A DNA stretch of 63,037 nt, counting the filler. It is 6 parts of 6 records of this genome, joined end to end, with 100 filler letters (N's around TTAATTAATTAA, not from the genome) between each part and the next. Parts side by side here need not be neighbours in the genome. Positions count along the whole stretch, not along the records: positions 34,113 to 42,021 come from SRR31156797_4010; 5 more parts are not named here. One strand, 5' to 3'. The notes beneath the pieces were generated by a model, which was not told where the DNA came from, did no database searches, and saw only the letters and a program-made list of their open reading frames with translations. The number at the start of each line of letters is the position of its first letter. Position 1 is the first letter of the stretch. Of this stretch, positions 3,301 through 39,423 are shown one piece after another. The position numbers were made by a program, and so were the translations under genes.

Positions 3301-3891
3301 GTATTTCCTGATGATTCAGATCCATTGAACTGGGGCACCAACTGCGATTTCCCGAATGGTGGGTTTAATCAAAACGGGAATATCTGGACTGAGGAAACCC
3401 AGAATAACCTACCTTCCGAGCGTAAAGGAATCAATATCACCGGCCCCTTCACCTTTGCCCCCGGCGAGGTACAGTCGCTGGATGTGGCTTTTGTGTATGC
3501 CCGCGACAACGATACAACGGATTTAGTTTCGGCTATTGACATCATGAACCAACGCATCGACACCATTAGAAACAGGGTTGAAAATGGCGGGATTATATAT
3601 CTACCTGATTATGCTGTTGGAATTTCTGAAATCAATATAGAAAATATCGACATCCCCGTTTTCCCCAATCCAACCAATGGAAACAAATTAAATGTTGATC
3701 TCAGGCTTTTTTCCTCAGGCAAACAGGTATCTTTTAAGATCATTGATTTACTGGGAAAAACCCGCCGGGATGGTGTATTAACCTGTGGTACTGTCAGCCA
3801 CGTGGATGTTACCGGCCTCAGGCCGGGTGTTTATTTCCTGGTTATTGGACACCAGGGAAACCAGAGCACCCGGAAATTAATGATCAATTAG
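376..3891 (+). CDS. T9SS-secreted protein with tandem Ig/cadherin-like (Big_9-type) repeats and a large uncharacterised domain
   Basis: Signal peptide; about five repeats of PVAxxD...xxxNDxDPxGD; C-terminal T9SS type-A CTD (VFPNPT...GVYFL...RKLMIN). Confidence 0.85.
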   Translation: MKKMYAFLRLMAVAILFFFPTGANSQSNPVAVDDTATGLLHQEIIIDILANDYDPQGDSLYYSYLSNPQNGYASPQLFGNIKYVNHTSSGPDSLRYTVRRLDDPEFYATAWVFIDVLPNQLPIIIQDTFQISAGVEMEVNVFDFSFDPDQDEYVFTNILEPVHGNAYKNGDSTFKVEFPYNHQGVDSAQIILKEMTSGASAREYVYFDVYKNPEFPSANNDTVMAWSGDTVSIPVLNNDFDPQGDNLEIMETNFWIYGHYYHQSDTEITIVPKPTADTGLVMYFEYFAMEQENYHHVSNPASGYLHVQENPNLPVAINDTVTVQAGFPAEVSVLLNDTDLNGDELKIKSAITPPEAQTVSHNDSILTITPYSYITNSFVVRYRIVEKENPAHYSGFAEVLVQVEENTNQPVAQDDFFTMTALETLTFNPLENDSDPDGLAIKIADVEVDGFGDVGISVEYGSDSTISLISHMNYSGDLAIPYRFCRSENPAMISNKAFLFVTIIPDESRFYAVNDTVTGWPGISAVANLVDNDHNPEGVDLEISQVKNVHGVDIHAITGSGIDYTIGFAMTDPVRTWYYLSSPEDSVLSAAQIFFEPMAGVSFIDSLDINNIKASFSNVGLHFYNPYLQDNKSKFEVPAGSGKQTIRSNSLWIGGYAEDGLHVSADIYRLQTKNFWPGPVSDAYQDDDVAKYKVWKISKAEIEYHISHYQEPGYEPIRSIATWPGNGNPNLGQALQLAPFFDQDNDGIYNPYAGDVPEIRGDQSLYFIFNDMIGAYDYGNIPLNLEIHGNAYAFDQPDDSAINNTVFLHYDIYNRSDFTYTDTYIGLFTSFDLGDPIDNYIGSDVQRGTGYVYNADPVDGDGESGTYGENPPVQGVTILGGVNLPDDQIDNPTGGCDESINGFGFEDGIVDNERMGMTKFGYIYKIPGANCIPYPQLPQEYYNLFQGKWKDNTYWVYGGNGHVNDSQATGPECNFVFPDDSDPLNWGTNCDFPNGGFNQNGNIWTEETQNNLPSERKGINITGPFTFAPGEVQSLDVAFVYARDNDTTDLVSAIDIMNQRIDTIRNRVENGGIIYLPDYAVGISEINIENIDIPVFPNPTNGNKLNVDLRLFSSGKQVSFKIIDLLGKTRRDGVLTCGTVSHVDVTGLRPGVYFLVIGHQGNQSTRKLMIN

Positions 3892-3932
3892 CAAATCCTG
3901 CTCCCCAATCAATAATTTGTCACTTTTGCAAC

Positions 3933-3964
3933 TTTCCCAAACGATTTTAAAATCATTTGGGAAA
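3933..3964. repeat. Near-perfect 32-bp palindrome (terminator or operator candidate)
   Basis: TTTCCCAAACGATTTT|AAAATCATTTGGGAAA with one mismatch, about 40 bp after the upstream stop codon. Confidence 0.6.
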
Positions 3965-4202
3965 TATTTGCTGTGTAAACATTTTATCAATGTTCACAAA
4001 AAGTCTAACCTGAAAAAAACATGTGGATTTTTCACATGATTGGTCGACGATTGAAAATCTTAGAGGTGACTATTCTTTTAATAAAATGCATTGCTCATTT
4101 TCAATTATTTCATCAGTTCCTTCAGGTGCCTAATTCAAATTTATGAAGGAAGCAGGCGAAAAGATTTTTCTTCATTTTTCCAAAAAATTAAAACTTCTTT
4201 TT

Positions 4203-4210
4203 TACATTTG
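4203..4210 (+). promoter_or_regulatory. Bacteroidota -7 promoter element for the lacI-susCD operon
   Basis: TACATTTG (TAnnTTTG). Confidence 0.55.
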
Positions 4211-4276
4211 TAGAATAAGCAAGTGAGCGTTTTACAAAGCACTGTTTTACAACTATTTAAATTCAACAAACTAAAC

Positions 4277-4290
4277 CTAAACCGATTTAG
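4277..4290. promoter_or_regulatory. LacI-family operator (autoregulation)
   Basis: Palindrome CTAAACCGATTTAG with a central CG, typical of LacI/GalR operators, 14 bp before the LacI start. Confidence 0.7.
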
Positions 4291-4304
4291 TTAAAAATGA
4301 GCAT

Positions 4305-5336
4305 ATGAAAAGGGCTTCAATCGCTGATATCGCACGTAGCCTCAAAGTTTCCAAAACACTGGTTTCGTTGGTTTTAAATGGCCACGGAGATAACAAGGGC
4401 ATCAATAAAGAAACCCAGAAAAAGGTCATTAGCAAGGCCGGAGAGCTCAACTACAAACCCAACCTTGTTGCACGTGGGCTTCGCCTGGGCGTGTCAAAAA
4501 CCATTGGTGTAATTGTAGCCGACATATCCAATAAATTCTATTCAAAAATAGCCAAACGCATCGAAGATGTTGCCGGGCAGCACGGATACCATATCATTTT
4601 TTGCAGCTCCGATGAAAACCCCGTTAAGGAAGTTGAACTTATCAACACCCTGCGTGAAAGGCAGGTGGACGGCCTTATCATATCTACCTGTCAAAACCGG
4701 AACAGTTCATTTAAAATGCTGAAAAATGAACAGTTCCCGTTTGTGCTTATCGACAGGCACATCCCCAGGATCAATGCGCACTATGTGGGTGTGAACAACA
4801 GGCAGGGTGGCGTTGATGTTACCACACACCTGCTGAACAATGGTTTTGATAAAATAGGATTTATCGGAATCCTGCCGGCACACCTCAGGACGATCAGGGA
4901 CAGGGAAACCGGCTACCGGGAGGCATTAAAAACACACGGGATCAGGGCCAGGTCAAATTACATCCGGTATCTAAAATTTGATTTTTCGCAGGATGACGTG
5001 ATACAATTGTTGAAAGCATTGCTTTCCGGACCACAACCGGTTAACGCCATTTTCTGCTCAAACAACAGGATCGCCATTGCCTGCCTGGATGGCCTCAGCA
5101 AAATGAAAGTGAAAATACCGCACGATATTGCCCTGGTAAGTTTTGATGACATCGACCTTTTCAGGCATAGCAGCCCGGCCATAACTTCTGTTGCACAACC
5201 GGTTGAAGATATCGGCGAAAAGGCATTTAATATCCTGCTGGGCGCCATTACAAACGGCGCAAACGGGGCCTGGCAGCAGGAAGTACTACCGGTAACATTA
5301 ATGAAAAGGCAATCCTGCGGCGAAAACATGAATTAA
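4305..5336 (+). CDS. LacI-family transcriptional regulator
   Basis: N-terminal HTH (SIADIARSLKVSKTLVSLVLNG), hinge YKPNLVARGL, periplasmic-binding-protein-like sugar domain. Confidence 0.95.
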   Translation: MKRASIADIARSLKVSKTLVSLVLNGHGDNKGINKETQKKVISKAGELNYKPNLVARGLRLGVSKTIGVIVADISNKFYSKIAKRIEDVAGQHGYHIIFCSSDENPVKEVELINTLRERQVDGLIISTCQNRNSSFKMLKNEQFPFVLIDRHIPRINAHYVGVNNRQGGVDVTTHLLNNGFDKIGFIGILPAHLRTIRDRETGYREALKTHGIRARSNYIRYLKFDFSQDDVIQLLKALLSGPQPVNAIFCSNNRIAIACLDGLSKMKVKIPHDIALVSFDDIDLFRHSSPAITSVAQPVEDIGEKAFNILLGAITNGANGAWQQEVLPVTLMKRQSCGENMN

Positions 5337-27804: not shown

Positions 27805-28238
27805 CCGATGGCGACGCGCTGGCGCTGTCCGCCCGATAGCTGCGACGGCTTTCGGTTCAACAGATGTTCGATCTGCAGCATCTGCGATACGTGTTCGACG
27901 GCCTTTTCCTGTTCCCACTTGTCGGCACCGCGGACCTTCATCCCGAACGTGATGTTCCGGCGCACATTCATGTTGGGGTAAAGCGCGTAGGACTGAAAAA
28001 CCATGGCGATATCACGGTCCTTGGGCGCAACCTTCGTGACATCCCGGCCATCGATGAAGATGCACCCGGACGAAGTGTCATCGAGGCCCGCGATCATGTT
28101 GAGCAGCGTCGATTTCCCGCAGCCCGACGGGCCGAGCAGAACAAGGAATTCACCCCGTTCGATACCCAGGCTTATTTCCTTCAGGACTTCGACGCCGCCG
28201 AACGATTTCCCGACGTCCTGCAATTCCATGATCGACAT
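27805..28238 (-). CDS. Sugar ABC transporter ATPase (MalK-like), 3'-truncated
   Basis: GPSGCGKS Walker A, MVFQSYALYP Q-loop, LSGGQRQRVA signature. Confidence 0.95.
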
Positions 28239-28242
28239 GGGT

Positions 28243-29136
28243 TTATCCCTTTACTGAACCTGCGGTCAGTCCGCGAATGAAATAGCGGCCGCCAACGACA
28301 TAGACGATCAGCGTCGGTACGGCCGCGATCAAGGCGGCGGCCATCTCGACGTTGTATTCCTTCACTCCGGTCGCGGAGTTCACCAGATTGTTCAAAGCTA
28401 CCGTAATCGGCTGCGAACTGACCTGCGCGAAGACCACCCCGAACAGGAAGTCGTTCCAGATCGCCGTGAATTGCCAGATCACCGTAACCACGATGACCGG
28501 CCCGGAAATCGGCAGGAAAATCAGGAAAAAAATTTGAAAGAAGCCGGCGCCGTCTATGCGGGCCGCCTTCACCAGTTCCGTCGGAATGGTGACGTAGTAG
28601 TTTCGGAAATAGAGCGTCGTGAACCCGATGCCATAGATGATGTGAACAAGGATCAAACCGGTCAGGCTTCCCGACAGGCCCATCAGACCGAGCACCCGGG
28701 CCATCGGCAGGATCACGATCTGAAAAGGTATGAAACACCCGAACAGCAGGAACGCGAATATCATTTCGGCGCCCCTGAACCGCCACTTGGTCAGCGTGTA
28801 CCCGTTCAACGCGCCGATGGACGTGGAAATGACGACGGCCGGCATGACCATGATCACCGAATTCCAGAAAAACGGTTGAACGCCCATGCATTGAATGCCG
28901 GAACAGGCATGGTTCCAGGCTTTGTCCCAGGCGTCGACGCTGATACCGCCCGGCAAAGCCAGTAGCCCGCCCATCCTCAATTCATCGAGCGTCTTGATCG
29001 ACGTCACGACCATGACATACAGCGGCATTGCGAAATACAAAACGAATGCGCCGAGAACGGCATAGAGAGCGAACCGGGGCAGGTGGTTTCGCAGGCCGCC
29101 CCCGGATCCCAACACCGTCATCATCCTATTGCTCAT
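28243..29136 (-). CDS. Carbohydrate ABC transporter permease (MalG-like)
   Basis: EAA-type loop ELVKAARIDGA; WNDFLF motif. Confidence 0.95.
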   Translation of the reverse strand: MSNRMMTVLGSGGGLRNHLPRFALYAVLGAFVLYFAMPLYVMVVTSIKTLDELRMGGLLALPGGISVDAWDKAWNHACSGIQCMGVQPFFWNSVIMVMPAVVISTSIGALNGYTLTKWRFRGAEMIFAFLLFGCFIPFQIVILPMARVLGLMGLSGSLTGLILVHIIYGIGFTTLYFRNYYVTIPTELVKAARIDGAGFFQIFFLIFLPISGPVIVVTVIWQFTAIWNDFLFGVVFAQVSSQPITVALNNLVNSATGVKEYNVEMAAALIAAVPTLIVYVVGGRYFIRGLTAGSVKG

Positions 29137-30055
29137 TGTCCGCCCTCAACTCGGAATAAAGGTAAGGCACGATCACCGCCAGAACGGTCATCAACATGAT
29201 GGTCGCGCTCGCCGCCGCCAGCCCCAGTTCGCCCCGTCCGAAAGCCATTGCGTACATGAACGTCGCCGGCATGTCGGTTGCGTAACCCGGCCCTCCCGCC
29301 GTCAGTGCGACGACCAGATCGAAGCTTTTGATGGCGATGTGAACCAGGACGATAACCGAACTGAAAAACGTCGCCCGCAGGCCCGGAATGACGATCTGAA
29401 AATAGATTCGCCATGTCCCGGCCCCTTCGACCATGGCGGCACGAATAATTTCCGGATTGATCGATCGCAGCCCGGCAAGAAAAAGCGCCATGACAAAACC
29501 GGCAGACTGCCAGACCGCCGCCAGGACGACCGTGTAGATCGCCATCTTTTCGTCCACCAGCCAATCGAAACGAAAGGTGTCGAAACCCCAATCCCTGAGG
29601 ACCCGTTCCAACCCCAAACCGGGATTAAGCAGCCATTTCCATGCCGTGCCCGTGACGATAAAGGACAAGGCCATCGGGTACAGATAGACCGACCGGATAA
29701 CCCCCTCCGCCCGAATCTTCTGATCCAGCAGAATTGCCAACAACAAACCAAGCGCGATCGCAATACCGACAAAAAGGACCATGAACACGATCAGGTTCGA
29801 CAACGCGACGTGCCATCGGTCCAATGCAAACAAACGCCCGTATTGAAGAAGCCCGACAAAATCATAGGAAGGCAGGATCTTGGATTTTGTCAGGGACAAT
29901 ACGACTGTCCATCCGATGAACCCGTAGACAAACACCAGAACCGCCGCAAAAGACGGAGAAATGATAATTTTCGGAAGATGCTTCTGCAGCCAATCGGACA
30001 TGGAAGTGTACTTTTCCGGAAAAATAACGGGTTCGTCCCCCGGGGTAACGGACAA
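29126..30055 (-). CDS. Carbohydrate ABC transporter permease (MalF-like)
   Basis: FLAGLRSI..EIIRAAMVEGA loop. Start is either TTG 30055 or ATG 30001. Confidence 0.93.
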   Translation of the reverse strand: MSVTPGDEPVIFPEKYTSMSDWLQKHLPKIIISPSFAAVLVFVYGFIGWTVVLSLTKSKILPSYDFVGLLQYGRLFALDRWHVALSNLIVFMVLFVGIAIALGLLLAILLDQKIRAEGVIRSVYLYPMALSFIVTGTAWKWLLNPGLGLERVLRDWGFDTFRFDWLVDEKMAIYTVVLAAVWQSAGFVMALFLAGLRSINPEIIRAAMVEGAGTWRIYFQIVIPGLRATFFSSVIVLVHIAIKSFDLVVALTAGGPGYATDMPATFMYAMAFGRGELGLAAASATIMLMTVLAVIVPYLYSELRADNEQ

Positions 30056-30116
30056 CGAACCCGTATGGAAGGATCTCGGTTATGTGCCCGGCGCCGCGCG
30101 GGTTGAACAAACGGCG

Positions 30117-31367
30117 TCAGATCTGACTGTCTTTAACCGATTTTATCAGCAATTCGGTCGCTTCTTTCGACGACATATCGGAATTGAAATGGCGCGTAAC
30201 GACGTCGTAGATGGCGCCTGTGGGCGCATCGCGAAGGGCCATGTTATGGGCGAAGCTGGGCAACAACGAGCCGGCCGTCTCCGACGAATTCAGATCGTAA
30301 AGAGACTTGTGGGCGCAATAGTCGAACTTTTCCATCGACACGTCGGTACGGACGGGAATGGAACCCTTGGCCAAATTGAAGGCGACCTGGAAGTCCGGGT
30401 CCATCAGCAGGCGCGCGACAATCTTCTGACCCGCCTGTTTGTTGGCATCCTTGACGTCGAACATCGCGAAGCTGTCGACATTATAGAGATAACCGGTCCC
30501 CGGTGCGGCTTCGCACAGGAAATCGACGCCCGGCACCTTTTTGGCGGCGGCGAATTCACCCTTCGCCCAGTCACCGGTCACCTGGAAGGCGGCCTCGCCC
30601 CGCATCAGCATGGCAAGGGCCAGGTTCCATTCGCGGCCGGAGAAATTGTCGTCGACGAACCCGCGCAAAATCCGCATCTGATCGAAAACCTTGATCATGG
30701 CGTCGCTGCCGAGCGTATCGAGATCGAGATCCACGAACGCCTTCTTAAAGAACTCCGGTCCCGCCATTCCCAGGGCCACGACCTCGAAAAGCGTGGCATC
30801 CTGCCAGGGCTGCCCGCCATGGGCCAAGGGGATGATCCCCATGCTTTTCAGCTTGGCTGCGGCCTGGTTGAATTCGTCCCAGGTTCGTGGAACGTCGACG
30901 CCGGCCTTCGCCAGAACGTGCGGATTTGCCCACAGCCAGTTAACCCTGTGAATGTTGACCGGAGCCGCGCAATAAATGCCTTGGCATTTCATCTGCGAAG
31001 CGATCGGCGCCGGAAGAACGTTGTCCCAGGTGTCGATACCTTTGACATCCGAGAGTTTCGCCATGACTCCCTGCTCGTTCCACTCCTGAATGCTCGGTCC
31101 CTTCATCTGAAAGGCAACCGGCGGATTTCCGCCAAGCACCCGCGACTTCAACACGACGCGCGCGGCATCGCCGCCGGCGCCGGCGACGGGCATGTCGGTC
31201 CAAACACCCCCTTCGGCGCTGAACTTATCCTTCAATACCTGAAGGGCCTTGGCCGTGCTGGCCTCGGTCCACCAATGCAGAATCTCGACTTCGGGACTGG
31301 CCGCCGCGGCTCCGCCCGAAATCGCCATGATCCCCGCTAACGAAACGATTGCGGATTTGAAGTTCAT
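30117..31367 (-). CDS. Sugar ABC transporter substrate-binding protein (glucose/mannose-binding-protein-like)
   Basis: Signal peptide; EILHWWT, PVNIHRVNW, GGQPWQDAT, GDWAKGEF; RBS GGAGG before ATG 31367. Confidence 0.93.
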   Translation of the reverse strand: MNFKSAIVSLAGIMAISGGAAAASPEVEILHWWTEASTAKALQVLKDKFSAEGGVWTDMPVAGAGGDAARVVLKSRVLGGNPPVAFQMKGPSIQEWNEQGVMAKLSDVKGIDTWDNVLPAPIASQMKCQGIYCAAPVNIHRVNWLWANPHVLAKAGVDVPRTWDEFNQAAAKLKSMGIIPLAHGGQPWQDATLFEVVALGMAGPEFFKKAFVDLDLDTLGSDAMIKVFDQMRILRGFVDDNFSGREWNLALAMLMRGEAAFQVTGDWAKGEFAAAKKVPGVDFLCEAAPGTGYLYNVDSFAMFDVKDANKQAGQKIVARLLMDPDFQVAFNLAKGSIPVRTDVSMEKFDYCAHKSLYDLNSSETAGSLLPSFAHNMALRDAPTGAIYDVVTRHFNSDMSSKEATELLIKSVKDSQI

Positions 31368-31438
31368 TTTCTTTCCTCCCTGTTTGTCCCATTTAACCTC
31401 GAATTGAAGTTCATTGTCTTTCCTCCCTGTTGGTCCCA
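31357..31438. repeat. 35-bp tandem duplication of the RBS and start region of the SBP gene
   Basis: 31357-31391 vs 31404-31438: 33/35 identical, period 47. Confidence 0.9.
31364..31414 (-). CDS. Putative 16-aa leader peptide (MNFNSRLNGTNREERK)
   Basis: Has its own GGGAGG RBS. Its TGA overlaps the SBP ATG (ATGA). Confidence 0.45.
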   Translation of the reverse strand: MNFNSRLNGTNREERK

Positions 31439-31461
31439 ACAAAGTGCGTAAAGAGGTTTGC

Positions 31462-32079
31462 TCAAGTCTCGGCGCCGACGGCGCAGGTTAAATCCCGGTT
31501 TCGCAGCGCCATCGCCACGGCATGGAAGAACACGACGTGAAGGTCTTCGATCTGTTCCATCTTCTGCGACGGCGCCTGCACACAGACGTCGCAGACCGAC
31601 CTCATCAGATCGGCCTTCGGCTGGTTTCCCGTGAATCCGACCGTGGTCGCGCCCTGGTTCCGGGCGTACGCCAGTGCCCGCAACACGTTCTCGCTACCGC
31701 CACTGCCGCTGATTCCGACGACGACATCACCCGGCCGAAGCAGGGTTTTCAGTTGTTCCAGAAAAGTGTCTTCATAGGCCACGTCGTTCGCATAGGCGGT
31801 CAGCACGGGAATGCCGTCGTTCAGCGACAAGACCCGTAATCGCCGGCGTGCCGTTTCCGTCGGTCCCGAACCAAGATCGGATGCCGACCCTTTGCTCAGG
31901 TCGCACGCAGCGTGAGACGCCAACGCGGCGCTGGCCCCATTGCCGAAGGTGAAGACTGTCGCATCGGTGTCAAAGGCGTTTTCCAGTATTGCCGCGACCG
32001 AGCGGACATCGTCGGTATTTGCCGCTTTCAACGCTTCACCAACGGTTTCGAAATAGTGTTCTATGACTTCCGGGCCCAT
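31462..32079 (-). CDS. SIS-domain phosphosugar isomerase (GmhA-like)
   Basis: FGNGASAALASH, LTAYAND, ISGSGGSENV, GFTG, IEDLH. Confidence 0.88.
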   Translation of the reverse strand: MGPEVIEHYFETVGEALKAANTDDVRSVAAILENAFDTDATVFTFGNGASAALASHAACDLSKGSASDLGSGPTETARRRLRVLSLNDGIPVLTAYANDVAYEDTFLEQLKTLLRPGDVVVGISGSGGSENVLRALAYARNQGATTVGFTGNQPKADLMRSVCDVCVQAPSQKMEQIEDLHVVFFHAVAMALRNRDLTCAVGAET

Positions 32080-32091
32080 AACGGTCTCCCA

Positions 32092-33051
32092 TCAAAAAAA
32101 CAAAACTGCGGCACCGATAAGGGCGGCATCGGCACCCAACCCGGTTCTGACGATCTTGAAATCGCGTGCCTCCGCGGCAATTGAATCGGCCTCGGCGGTC
32201 TTCTCGACCAATTCCAGGTTGAGGCTTTCCGAGACACCTCCCCCAAGGACGATCATCTCCACGTCGAGAAGATTGATGCACACCGCGGCGGCTCTGCCGA
32301 CGGCTTCGGAAGCCTGATCCATGACAAATTTCGCCGTCGGGTCGTTTTGCGAAGCAAGCTTCCCAACCTCGGCGCCTTTTGAAACATCGAGCCCCAGGGA
32401 ATTCGCCCGCCGCACCAAGGACGGCCCCGAGGCCGCCGCTTCAAGGCAGCCACGTCGACCGCAACTGCAGACCGAGGTTTCGCCGCCTACCGGAACGTGC
32501 CCGATTTCTCCGGCCAATCCGCCGCGCCCCCGATACAGCTCTCCGTTCAGGACAACCGCACCGCCGACACCGGTCGAAACCGTGACCCAAACGAAATCGG
32601 AAACGTCGACGGCAACGCCAAAGCGGATCTCCGCCAAGGCACAGCCATCGACATCGTTTGACACCAGAACCTCTCGCCCGAACCTTCTGGCAATGGGTGC
32701 CGCCACTTCGATGTTGCGCCACCCCCGCACGGGCCAGAAATCAAGGATGCCGGTTTTTCGATCCACCAACCCTGGCAAGGATGCGCCAATTCCGGTCAGA
32801 TCGGTCGGAACCGTATCGGCGGCCTTCATGACATCGGCCAGCAAATCCATTGCACCGGCAATAATCTCGTCCGGGCCATTATTCGGCGTCGGAACGATCA
32901 GACGATTTAGCACCTGCCCCGAACTATCGACGATTCCGGCCATCATCTTGGTTCCACCGAGGTCGATAACACCGGCAATTTCCGAGGTCCGCATCGATTT
33001 GTCGTAGACATTTGCGCGCTTTGTTTTTGTCTTTTCCATCGTCTCAGTCAT
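32092..33051 (-). CDS. ROK-family sugar kinase
   Basis: IDLGGTK ATP motif, VSTGVGG, GEIGH, CSCGRRGCLE; no HTH. Confidence 0.92.
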   Translation of the reverse strand: MTETMEKTKTKRANVYDKSMRTSEIAGVIDLGGTKMMAGIVDSSGQVLNRLIVPTPNNGPDEIIAGAMDLLADVMKAADTVPTDLTGIGASLPGLVDRKTGILDFWPVRGWRNIEVAAPIARRFGREVLVSNDVDGCALAEIRFGVAVDVSDFVWVTVSTGVGGAVVLNGELYRGRGGLAGEIGHVPVGGETSVCSCGRRGCLEAAASGPSLVRRANSLGLDVSKGAEVGKLASQNDPTAKFVMDQASEAVGRAAAVCINLLDVEMIVLGGGVSESLNLELVEKTAEADSIAAEARDFKIVRTGLGADAALIGAAVLFF

Positions 33052-33226
33052 GAATGTCCGGCCAAATCCGAAAAGCCTCTGATTGATTGGTTATCTCGTA
33101 ACTTGTCGCCACGAAGATCATGAAGTATGTATGAACTGAACTTCAATTTGATCTTTTGATTATTTTTTTATTCTAATTCATTTAATCTTTTGTGGAAAAA
33201 CTGCAAAATAGCCCGACAAAATTCGA

Positions 33227-34012
33227 ATGAGGTCGTTCTCGATGTTCCGACGCACACCGGACGAATCCCGTATTTTGGAAGTCGTTTATTGGTTTGGTCC
33301 TCAGTCTCGCAAGGATCTCGGGGAAATCGCCGGTCTGACGCGGGCACGCTTGACCCCGATACTTGATCGTCTGATCGACAAAGGCCTGTTGGCGGAATGC
33401 AACCAGATGCAATCCAACGGCGGGCGGCGGGCAACGGCCGTTGGCCTCGATCCTCAATACGGCTGGATTGTCGGCATCGACATTGCGCCCGACGGTGCGA
33501 TCATCATGGTAACGGACTTCTCACTGAAGCCCTTTGCGACACGGTCGTGTGCGCTCGATGTCAAAGACGGACCAAGCGCCGTCATGGCGACTCTGTCCCG
33601 TGTTTTGGACCGCCTTCTCGACGATCACGGGATCGCACCGTCAAGCATCCTCGGACTTGGGATCGGCGTGCCCGGGCCGGTGGAAAGATCCAGCGGCCTT
33701 CTTATCGGTGCGCCGGCCATGGCATCCTGGGAAGGGTTCAGTATCCGCGATCACTTCGCTTCCCGCTTTCAGGCTCCGGTATTCATCGATAACGACGCCA
33801 ACATGCAATCATTGGGGGAGTTGTGGAACGAACGGAATAAGACACAATCCACGGAAAGCCAGGAGACCTTCGTCATCGTAAAGATGGGACCGTTCGGCAT
33901 CGGCGCGGGGATCATTACCGAGGGACGACTGCTTCGCGGCGCGCATGGAGGTGCGGGCGAAATCGGACATGTTCCGACCGATCCCGACGGACTGCCCTGT
34001 ACCTGCGGCAAT
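33227..34012 (+). CDS. ROK-family transcriptional regulator, 3'-truncated
   Basis: N-terminal wHTH (SRKDLGEIAGLT) with GGRRA; ROK motifs GVPGPV, DNDAN, GEIGH, CTCG. Confidence 0.9.
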
Positions 34013-38108: not shown

Positions 38109-38189
38109 ATTTGTAGTAACTGTAAATCAGTAGAATTGTTGAAATATTCAGTTTATTGTCCATATTTTCCAACGACTTAATATAAAACA

Positions 38190-38224
38190 AAAACACCTGC
38201 TATCCGCGATATAACAGGTGTTTT
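38190..38224 (-). terminator. Terminator after the DUF6261 gene
   Basis: AAAACACCTG / CAGGTGTTTT stem with a T-tract on the minus strand. Confidence 0.75.
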
Positions 38225-38257
38225 CTTACTTCCCAAACCATATGGATCAAACCAAAC

Positions 38258-38980
38258 CTATTCGTATAATTCTTTTTCTCGCAGCTTGGTTAAGCGCGCT
38301 TTTACCTTGCTGTTGTTTTCTTTAATAATCATATCTATTTTTTGAGCACACTCTTCAAAAGTATCCGATCTTACCTTGCGCATTACATCTAAATAACTAA
38401 TTAAATCCTTGTTGATCTGATTTTTAATAATCTCACCAACTTTTCCGGCAGGTAATAGGTTCTCTTGTTCTGCTTTTTTTGAAATGTACTGTTGATATGC
38501 TTCTTCAAATGCCGCCTGATCAGCTTTGAGGTGTGTAATGAGGGTATCAAAATTCGGTAAAATTTGAATTGCTGCGGCTACATCGGGCTTTTTTAAGTCC
38601 TGCAATAAAGCATGTATATTGGCCGACTCCGAACTGTAACTCAAATTCAACACTTCCATACCATAATTATCTAAAACATCCATCACCACTTGGGCTGCTT
38701 GTGCAATTTCTTCCTCAGGCCAAATAAGCTTTGCCTTTATTTCCAGAAATATAACGCGAGCAGCTTTATCGCGTTGAGCATCTAAAGGAGCTAGCGTGCT
38801 TTTAATAATTTCTTCTTTTAATGCATCAGTCATGCGCATTGTATTATCAGCTAATTGCTGAATAACGCTACTAATGTAACTGTCGCTTGAAAAATCGTAA
38901 GAAGAGGTTAAGTTTAAAATAGATAACGAAGTCGTATTAATTTCTTCGATATTGCTTCTGTAGTGGATTACTGTAGACAT
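38258..38980 (-). CDS. DUF6261-family alpha-helical protein
   Basis: Pattern LDAQRD...AAQVV..VLDNYG....LSYSSESANI..LLQDL...L...Q.AF..IN..N; 240 aa, Bacteroidota context. Confidence 0.75.
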   Translation of the reverse strand: MSTVIHYRSNIEEINTTSLSILNLTSSYDFSSDSYISSVIQQLADNTMRMTDALKEEIIKSTLAPLDAQRDKAARVIFLEIKAKLIWPEEEIAQAAQVVMDVLDNYGMEVLNLSYSSESANIHALLQDLKKPDVAAAIQILPNFDTLITHLKADQAAFEEAYQQYISKKAEQENLLPAGKVGEIIKNQINKDLISYLDVMRKVRSDTFEECAQKIDMIIKENNSKVKARLTKLREKELYE

Positions 38981-39102
38981 TTATTTTAAGATTTGATTAA
39001 TGTTATTCTAATATACCTCAAAAAATTAAATTACCGAACATATTGTTCCTATTTTTTTAATCGGAATTATTAGTAGATATAACTGTGTAACCACGATAAG
39101 GT

Positions 39103-39423
39103 TAAAAGTATTTTCAAATAGTGAATAGAGGACTAAAATTTCCATAATTTAATTTTAAAGAAGTTCCTGGCAGGCCAATGACTACTTCAAATTATTTTTA
39201 ACTCCCGGGTCGCAGGCTAATTTGTCCATCAAAATATTTTTTTGTGCTTTTTAGTCGACAAGTAACTTTGTCAAATCAATTCGAAGCTATTCTTAGCCGA
39301 CCATCCGTTTCAACAAAAAAGTTCGAAAGGCCATTTAGCCTGCTAAAATATTCATGCAAATAAAAAGAACCTTTTACTCGCTTGCTAAATGCAAGTTCTT
39401 TTTATTTAGTTGTATGCCTAGCC
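39103..39423. repeat. Non-coding array of degenerate palindromes with an exact 42-bp period (two motifs alternating about every 21 bp)
   Basis: Core A (consensus TTAGCnnGCTAA) starts at 39125, 39167, 39209, 39251, 39293, 39335 and 39377. Core B (TCAAAnnnnTTyGA-like) starts 20 bp after each A start. Confidence 0.75.

Follow-up and report, generated by a model that had tools for sequence, protein, structure and literature searches.

The window, meaning the whole stretch of DNA that was analyzed, comprised 63,037 nucleotides from six records of one genome joined through N blocks, and its reference was locus L001 of chromosome G001, which is ∼97% identical. An open reading frame on the minus strand at positions 38258 to 38980 encoded a protein of 240 amino acids. 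This product passed the gathering cutoff of DUF6261 (PF19775), with 76.2 bits versus 27, as a preliminary description of the locus had proposed, and 150 of 150 aligned relatives matched the same family. Immediately upstream, a stretch on the minus strand (38981 to 39124) is likely to hold the promoter and leader of this gene and contained, at 39035 to 39042, a one-mismatch match to the consensus of the Bacteroidetes −7 box. An array of repeats with no assigned strand followed at 39125 to 39418, placing it 145 to 438 bp upstream of the DUF6261 gene in a back-to-back arrangement with an SPFH gene. Behind the DUF6261 gene, a terminator-like hairpin was predicted by a consensus match on the minus strand (38189 to 38225). 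Other neighbors were AbgT, DUF2520, RecF, DciA, and MgsA genes; no cas gene was present among the seven neighbors scanned, and neither a ParA nor a ParB gene was found among the annotated neighbors.

Geometry of the repeat array

The array consisted of seven degenerate, quasi-palindromic units of 42 bp with a dyad every 21 bp. The A cores were located at 39125 to 39136 (core 1, the most decayed), 39167 to 39178, 39209 to 39220, 39251 to 39262, 39293 to 39304, 39335 to 39346 (core 6, the nearest to the consensus palindrome), and 39377 to 39388 (core 7). Half a period away, B cores were present at 39187 to 39200 (an A/T-rich dyad), 39229 to 39242, 39271 to 39284, and 39313 to 39326. These seven A and four B cores lay where the preliminary description had put them. 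A perfect 13-bp inverted repeat (39358 to 39370 and 39395 to 39407) flanked A core 7 within 39358 to 39407 and was centered on that core at 39382.5, and the reported inversion of one core pair was also correctly located, with the B core at 39271 to 39284 forming the midpoint (39277.5) of a 33-bp inverted pair.

Autocorrelation of 39125 to 39418 gave peaks at lag 42 (z of 7.1) and lag 84 (z of 5.8), so that the 42-bp period had a z of 6 to 7, and none of 2,000 dinucleotide shuffles matched this signal at any lag. Among 1,215 subwindows across the 63 kb, the array had the strongest 42/84 signal. A direct 21-bp repeat was not found in the array, with z values of −1.1 at lag 21 and −2.0 at lag 63; as both lags were below average, the unit of the array is 42 bp. 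The dyad centers nevertheless shared one common phase modulo 21, with complementarity of 0.44 to 0.48 versus at most 0.38 at other phases, and the 21-bp spacing of dyads over long arms follows from the geometry of a symmetric 42-bp unit. The 21-bp rhythm is the distance between dyad axes and not a sequence repeat. Of the 21/42-bp periodicity that had been described, the 42-bp period and the 21-bp dyad spacing were upheld. Spacers that had been regarded as unrelated were weakly conserved and carried inverted symmetry. Stops occurred in all six frames of this array, in line with the earlier statement that it is not an open reading frame of 14-amino-acid repeats. The array was not reported by Tandem Repeats Finder, and contigs of four runs exhibited strain differences only.

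Association of arrays with DUF6261 genes

The search for similar arrays covered 96 DUF6261 loci from 21 genomes, of which 94 had a profile hit and were retained and 2 were dropped; 92 genes with free upstream DNA served as controls. An upstream array with a period of 41 to 43 bp was detected for 58 of the 94 DUF6261 genes but for only 2 of the 92 controls, as predicted by the preliminary description, and a downstream array was found for 1 of 93 DUF6261 genes. Both arrays at control genes proved to be copies of arrays linked to DUF6261 genes elsewhere in that genome, one with 77% identity over 289 bp. The periods of the upstream arrays were 41 bp (n = 22), 42 bp (n = 34), and 43 bp (n = 2), with 3 to 15 units arranged head to tail, and no upstream array was detectable at the remaining 36 of 94 genes. 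In one member of a DUF6261 subfamily, the array followed the stop codon (L021:1248-1461).

The sequences of the arrays were unrelated between genes, even between paralogues in one genome, while the period was constant at 41 to 43 bp. Young arrays were near-perfect tandem repeats, and old arrays retained only the cores. The view that these are not simple tandem repeats therefore holds for aged arrays, such as that of the window, but not for the young members. A primary dyad with arms of 5 to 6 bp and a loose 4-bp center was present in 49 of 59 arrays, with complementarity of 0.68 to 0.77 at positions 3 to 7, and the half-period dyad exceeded background in 45 of 49 arrays (0.45 versus 0.25), these dyad statistics being partly circular since the phases were picked by long-range symmetry. 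Similarity between proteins and similarity between arrays covaried weakly (Mantel rho of 0.07, with 5.7% of permutations as high).

The window array was missing at four of five orthologous loci, where the array profile detected nothing above shuffles, and these four relatives kept the DUF6261 gene at the equivalent chromosomal site. Together with the 36 genes without a detectable upstream array, this indicated that the gene does not need the array. In a close strain, 18 of 294 array sites had changed, compared to 10 of 241 third codon positions; change at about the third-codon rate indicated that constraint on the array is weak. The 144 bp at 38981 to 39124 exhibited no differences (0/144) from a near-identical strain. 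Across the sample, the exact −7 box was modestly enriched between the array and the start codon, with 17 occurrences in 10.6 kb versus 7 on the other strand and 6 in 8.2 kb on the far side of the array. Given this enrichment and the invariant 144 bp, the array is probably situated upstream of the promoter of the gene.

No description of this pairing was found in the openly accessible literature, the search having excluded subscription papers and supplements, which could list such arrays. Together with the gene-less copies described below, these results pointed to an undescribed gene-plus-repeat partnership of the Bacteroidales.

Dispersed copies without the gene

A relative of the window array was detected ∼770 kb away at 1.281 Mb of G001 (E value of 7e-5), lying between convergent genes with no DUF6261 gene nearby. 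It scored 48 with a three-unit profile, compared to a best score of 6.7 over 2 Mb of that chromosome. Nine gene-linked arrays from six genomes were used as queries. For each of the nine, one or more gene-less copies were detected in the genome of the query, and the 3 to 5 other genomes searched yielded none at an E value of 1e-4 or better, figures that apply to queries picked as clear examples and to BLAST, which favors copies with retained cores. The existence of gene-less copies of gene-linked arrays, confined among the genomes searched to the genome of origin, is a new aspect of this system.

In 21 of 22 pairs of a master array and its copy, homology ended at the array and no gene remnant was present; the exception (L310) was a duplicate of the whole locus in which the gene had an internal deletion. 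A duplicate of an entire locus, with its gene intact, was also observed (L301). Across eight master-copy pairs, mismatches were found at 39 of 496 arm positions versus 296 of 1,113 positions elsewhere, and divergence was 8% for primary arms, 19% for second arms, and 27% for the rest. Arm pairs were kept in 195 of 248 cases in the copies and in 209 of 248 in the masters.

One copy lay between arfB-like and lutA-like genes, and the array was absent from this site in all three relatives (3/3) in which gene order was conserved. The arfB-like gene and this array were immediately preceded by a duplicated fragment from the 5′ part of the lutA-like gene (L263; G001:C1:5602095-5602295), and a different short repeat occupied the arfB-lutA gap of one relative (L268, about 1300 to 1420). 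At the copies, inspection by eye detected no target site duplication; one family had inverted ends, which fell at dyad positions. Among the 12 gene-less sites of G001, 4 were between convergent genes.

Genome G030 contained seven copies that shared one fixed end and varied in unit number. These were homogeneous internally (0.90 to 0.96), compared to a mean of 0.72 between copies, and the common end and inner homogeneity fit seeding followed by local amplification. The G030 copies (L278 to L287) kept the primary palindrome, while the second dyad was palindromic in differing ways, looking as if one arm had been copied onto the other.

Predicted structure and distribution of DUF6261 proteins

The structure of the DUF6261 protein was predicted with high confidence (pLDDT of 97) as all-helical and without strands, with one helix of 51 residues. 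At 1.5 Å per residue, the modeled helix would span ∼75 Å, near the length of 21 bp of B-DNA, which we regard as a coincidence and not as evidence. An internal two-fold repeat was detected by hhalign (probability of 86%; E value of 5e-6). The proteins were mostly acidic, with a median pI of 5.7 and a pI of 5.0 for a near-identical orthologue of the window protein. The best-kept positions were D67, R70, D71, Y106, Y115, F158, Y196, and R229; no histidine was kept in half of 92 DUF6261 sequences, and no known catalytic motif was conserved.

Searches for a fold or relative of known function gave negative results. No known DNA-binding or nuclease fold was found for this helical rod, Pfam and NCBIfam gave no match to a transposase family, a sequence search of the PDB was empty, and Foldseek returned no match in the PDB and viral libraries at an E value of 0.001. 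The best fold matches in VIA were LemA (Z of 9.7, root mean square deviation of 2.8, 120 aligned residues) and DGR Avd (Z of 8.4 to 8.6), scores that for such a predicted model are in the range of generic helical bundles. Neither a ToxN-like nor a Nop-domain fold appeared among the fold matches listed, the best of which were generic bundles.

The family comprised 1,216 cluster representatives at 50% identity, with up to 19 paralogues per genome. HagB of Porphyromonas gingivalis is presumably a member, and repeats upstream of hagB were reportedly mentioned in papers from the 1990s. Relatives were absent from viral contigs and plasmids, apart from one unannotated, phage-labeled gut record (MT837725.1; L262), in which positions 3410 to 4903 held an HU-like open reading frame followed by a DUF6261 relative. 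By eye, this relative adjoined open reading frames resembling restriction and Vsr genes.

Interpretation of the gene-array pairing

We assign a probability of roughly 0.5 to the reading that the array would serve both as a DNA platform where the protein encoded by the neighboring DUF6261 gene docks and as the gene-linked master copy of a dispersed family. A two-fold symmetric helical protein, or a dimer, would read the 5- to 6-bp arms of the double-stranded array, and the fixed reach of this protein would set the 41- to 43-bp period. Loading of the protein beside its own promoter could result in autoregulation. One or more units, together with a fixed end, may be copied to new intergenic sites and reamplified there, either by the DUF6261 protein itself or by host enzymes acting on bound or hairpin DNA. 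Arrays would decay and be replaced, with the gene staying at its locus. The preliminary description had likewise suggested a scaffold for a DNA-binding protein. The link to the gene holds across the family and such a scaffold is the best fit, but the protein is acidic and lacks a recognizable DNA-binding fold.

Docking by the adjacent product would provide a large family without an assigned function with a concrete candidate DNA partner. Should each protein prove to read its own array, these loci would form a natural library of orthogonal protein-DNA pairs with a new binding fold, and if DUF6261 also spreads the arrays, a new kind of mobile DNA would be involved.

It is unlikely that a shared architectural protein of the host (HU/IHF-like) reads the spacing and shape of the arrays, with DUF6261 merely regulated and the copies spread passively. 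Such a protein would explain a constant period with free sequence, the acidity of the DUF6261 protein, and its weak covariation with the array, and HU-HIG genes of the same genome are trailed by 22- to 23-bp repeats. Stabilization of the nucleoid has been proposed for constant-size repeats in PMC8161180. However, cores were conserved within a family and differed between paralogues of one genome, and the sole arrays at control genes were copies of DUF6261-linked arrays. The G001 copies between convergent genes also do not fit promoter control.

Less probable still is the reading of the array as a simple operator for autoregulation or a centromere-like site, with the gene-less copies being leftovers of duplicated cassettes that lost the gene. 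L310 is exactly such a leftover, L301 is a duplicated locus that retains its gene, and the geometry resembles that of sopC as outlined in the accessible part of PMC3177203. Against this, all but one of the 22 copies had neither homology outside the array nor a gene remnant, the arms were conserved in the copies, and partner genes of the ParA/ParB type were lacking among the annotated neighbors.

In type III toxin-antitoxin and TIGR-Tas systems, strand-specific structured RNA repeats lie upstream of the gene, and the upstream site and 41- to 43-nucleotide units of the DUF6261 arrays resemble these. Transcription of the array into an RNA of repeated hairpins to which the protein binds, in an antitoxin-like or guide-like manner, is nonetheless improbable. 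The differing second-dyad palindromes of the G030 copies are in keeping with it, as are the changes of these copies relative to their master, which gained pairing in 29 cases and lost it in 7, events that are not independent. On the strand of the gene, however, the array folded no better than shuffles (z of −0.62), and no Rfam family matched it. Stem mismatches comprised 211 G-U and 227 A-C pairs, in line with base composition, and the units within an array did not show compensatory pairing with each other (2,569 versus 2,557 expected; 248 of 1,000 permutations). The likely promoter sits between array and gene, and one array sits downstream of its gene. The structured RNA offered earlier as an alternative was thus unsupported in folding, Rfam, G-U/A-C balance, and covariation, and strand-specific structured RNA repeats of the toxin-antitoxin or TIGR-Tas kind do not appear to be present, judging from the sequences.

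A peptide-repeat open reading frame was ruled out by six-frame stops and by periods of 41 and 43 bp, since the 24 of 58 arrays with these periods cannot encode a peptide repeat. A neutral minisatellite or ruined 14-residue repeat frame is very improbable and largely refuted, for while change between strains was near neutral, the array was lost in orthologues, and some frame was open in 31 of 59 arrays, stops filled all six frames in 28 of 59, the periods departed from 42 bp as noted, and a neutral repeat would neither settle on one period and a single gene family nor spare the arms.

Comparison with known repeat systems

Organization of the DUF6261 arrays appears similar to that of the REPIN/REP/BIME elements with RAYT, in which, according to the available parts of PMC3116915 and PMC3733652, a resident gene is flanked by its own palindromic repeat. 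Both have several orthogonal gene-repeat groups per genome and gene-less extragenic copies. RAYT, however, is described there as an HUH (Y1) tyrosine transposase, whereas DUF6261 proteins are predicted to be all-helical and have no conserved histidine, and REPINs are hairpin doublets of short inverted REPs in high copy, compared to one-sided, head-to-tail arrays of 41 to 43 bp with few copies per family. By analogy, the DUF6261 arrays would be organized like REPIN-RAYT without being a member, the protein being unrelated.

Constant-size, variable-sequence tandem repeats of 20 to 21 nucleotides, in a few cases 40 to 41, and of 52 nucleotides are reported for Bacillus and Leptospira in the available text of PMC8161180 and PMC6749651. 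As with the DUF6261-linked repeats, their length is fixed and their sequence free, a genome holds several families, and the copies are scattered and noncoding; on these features, the DUF6261-linked repeats fit the published class. Unlike here, no partner gene is named in those portions of the two papers, and neither "Bacteroid" nor "palindrom" appears as a word in the text of PMC8161180. The puzzle of such repeats, as posed there, would now be tied to a specific gene.

F-plasmid sopC, the site of SopB, has direct repeats of ∼43 bp (about four helical turns) with a palindrome in each, palindrome arms that hold specificity, and the gene of the binding protein alongside, as far as the available section of PMC3177203 describes it. 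The DUF6261 arrays differ in being chromosomal, without ParB/ParA, with up to 19 paralogous systems per genome, a second dyad, and dispersed copies. MITEPgRS (MITE464) of P. gingivalis, with 41-nucleotide tandem repeats in variable number, is likewise a dispersed noncoding element of a Bacteroidales genome, but the accessible passages of PMC2575886 and PMC4596501 give it IS5-type terminal inverted repeats and movement by ISPg1 and describe no partner gene. A CRISPR array had been rejected earlier, and this was confirmed by the degenerate cores, the symmetric spacers that are common to copies, the empty Rfam search, and the lack of cas among the seven neighbors.

Other genes with phased repeats

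When 2 Mb of G001 was scanned de novo, seven distinct noncoding clusters with a period of 41 or 42 bp were detected. Two were copies of DUF6261-linked arrays and one belonged to a family weakly similar to a third such array; one preceded a PQLLE gene and one was a gene-less copy of another PQLLE-linked array; one had no known partner, and one resembled T-rich noise. A 21/42-bp array at G001 L163:1600-1900 matched none of the gene-linked arrays compared, and neither a DUF6261 nor a PQLLE gene was seen next to it.

PQLLE proteins (NCBIfam NF052641) are all-helical, with about 215 amino acids and an internal two-fold repeat. Upstream 21/42-bp arrays were present at 9 of 16 loci over the cutoff and at 8 of 13 weaker matches (L252, L248, L244, and L314 to L343), and one PQLLE-linked array had two gene-less copies. 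The family thus seems analogous to DUF6261 in helix layout, internal repeat, and upstream phased array, but its arrays were mostly direct 21-bp repeats. Homology between the two families was not supported (hhalign probability of 10% at best), a fold search with the PQLLE model likewise detected generic helical bundles, and no literature on PQLLE was found.

A bolder version of the docking and master copy reading, which we consider tentative and rather doubtful, is that DUF6261 and, in parallel, PQLLE form a new all-helical class of proteins that make, measure, and spread palindromic repeats of fixed length. The protein would grip its own 41- to 43-bp unit, and a seed with a single fixed end would be copied to a new location between genes and extended there into an array, with each paralogue keeping a repeat family of its own. 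If true, such a gene-repeat system, selfish or domesticated, would lack any known transposase chemistry and would explain bacterial repeats of constant length and changing sequence.

Three genes of G001 of the HU-HIG/HU-DNA_bdg type had 22- to 23-bp repeats behind each (L172:15180-15280, L196:15530-15680, and L229:17150-17300), and these may represent a third pairing of a gene with a repeat. An intergenic gap of G001 (L207:17530-17665) contained a long 7-bp tandem repeat that was perfect. Within the window, positions 27805 to 34012 held sugar ABC and ROK genes that looked GC rich, unlike the adjoining Bacteroidota DNA, and perhaps represent contamination of the bin.
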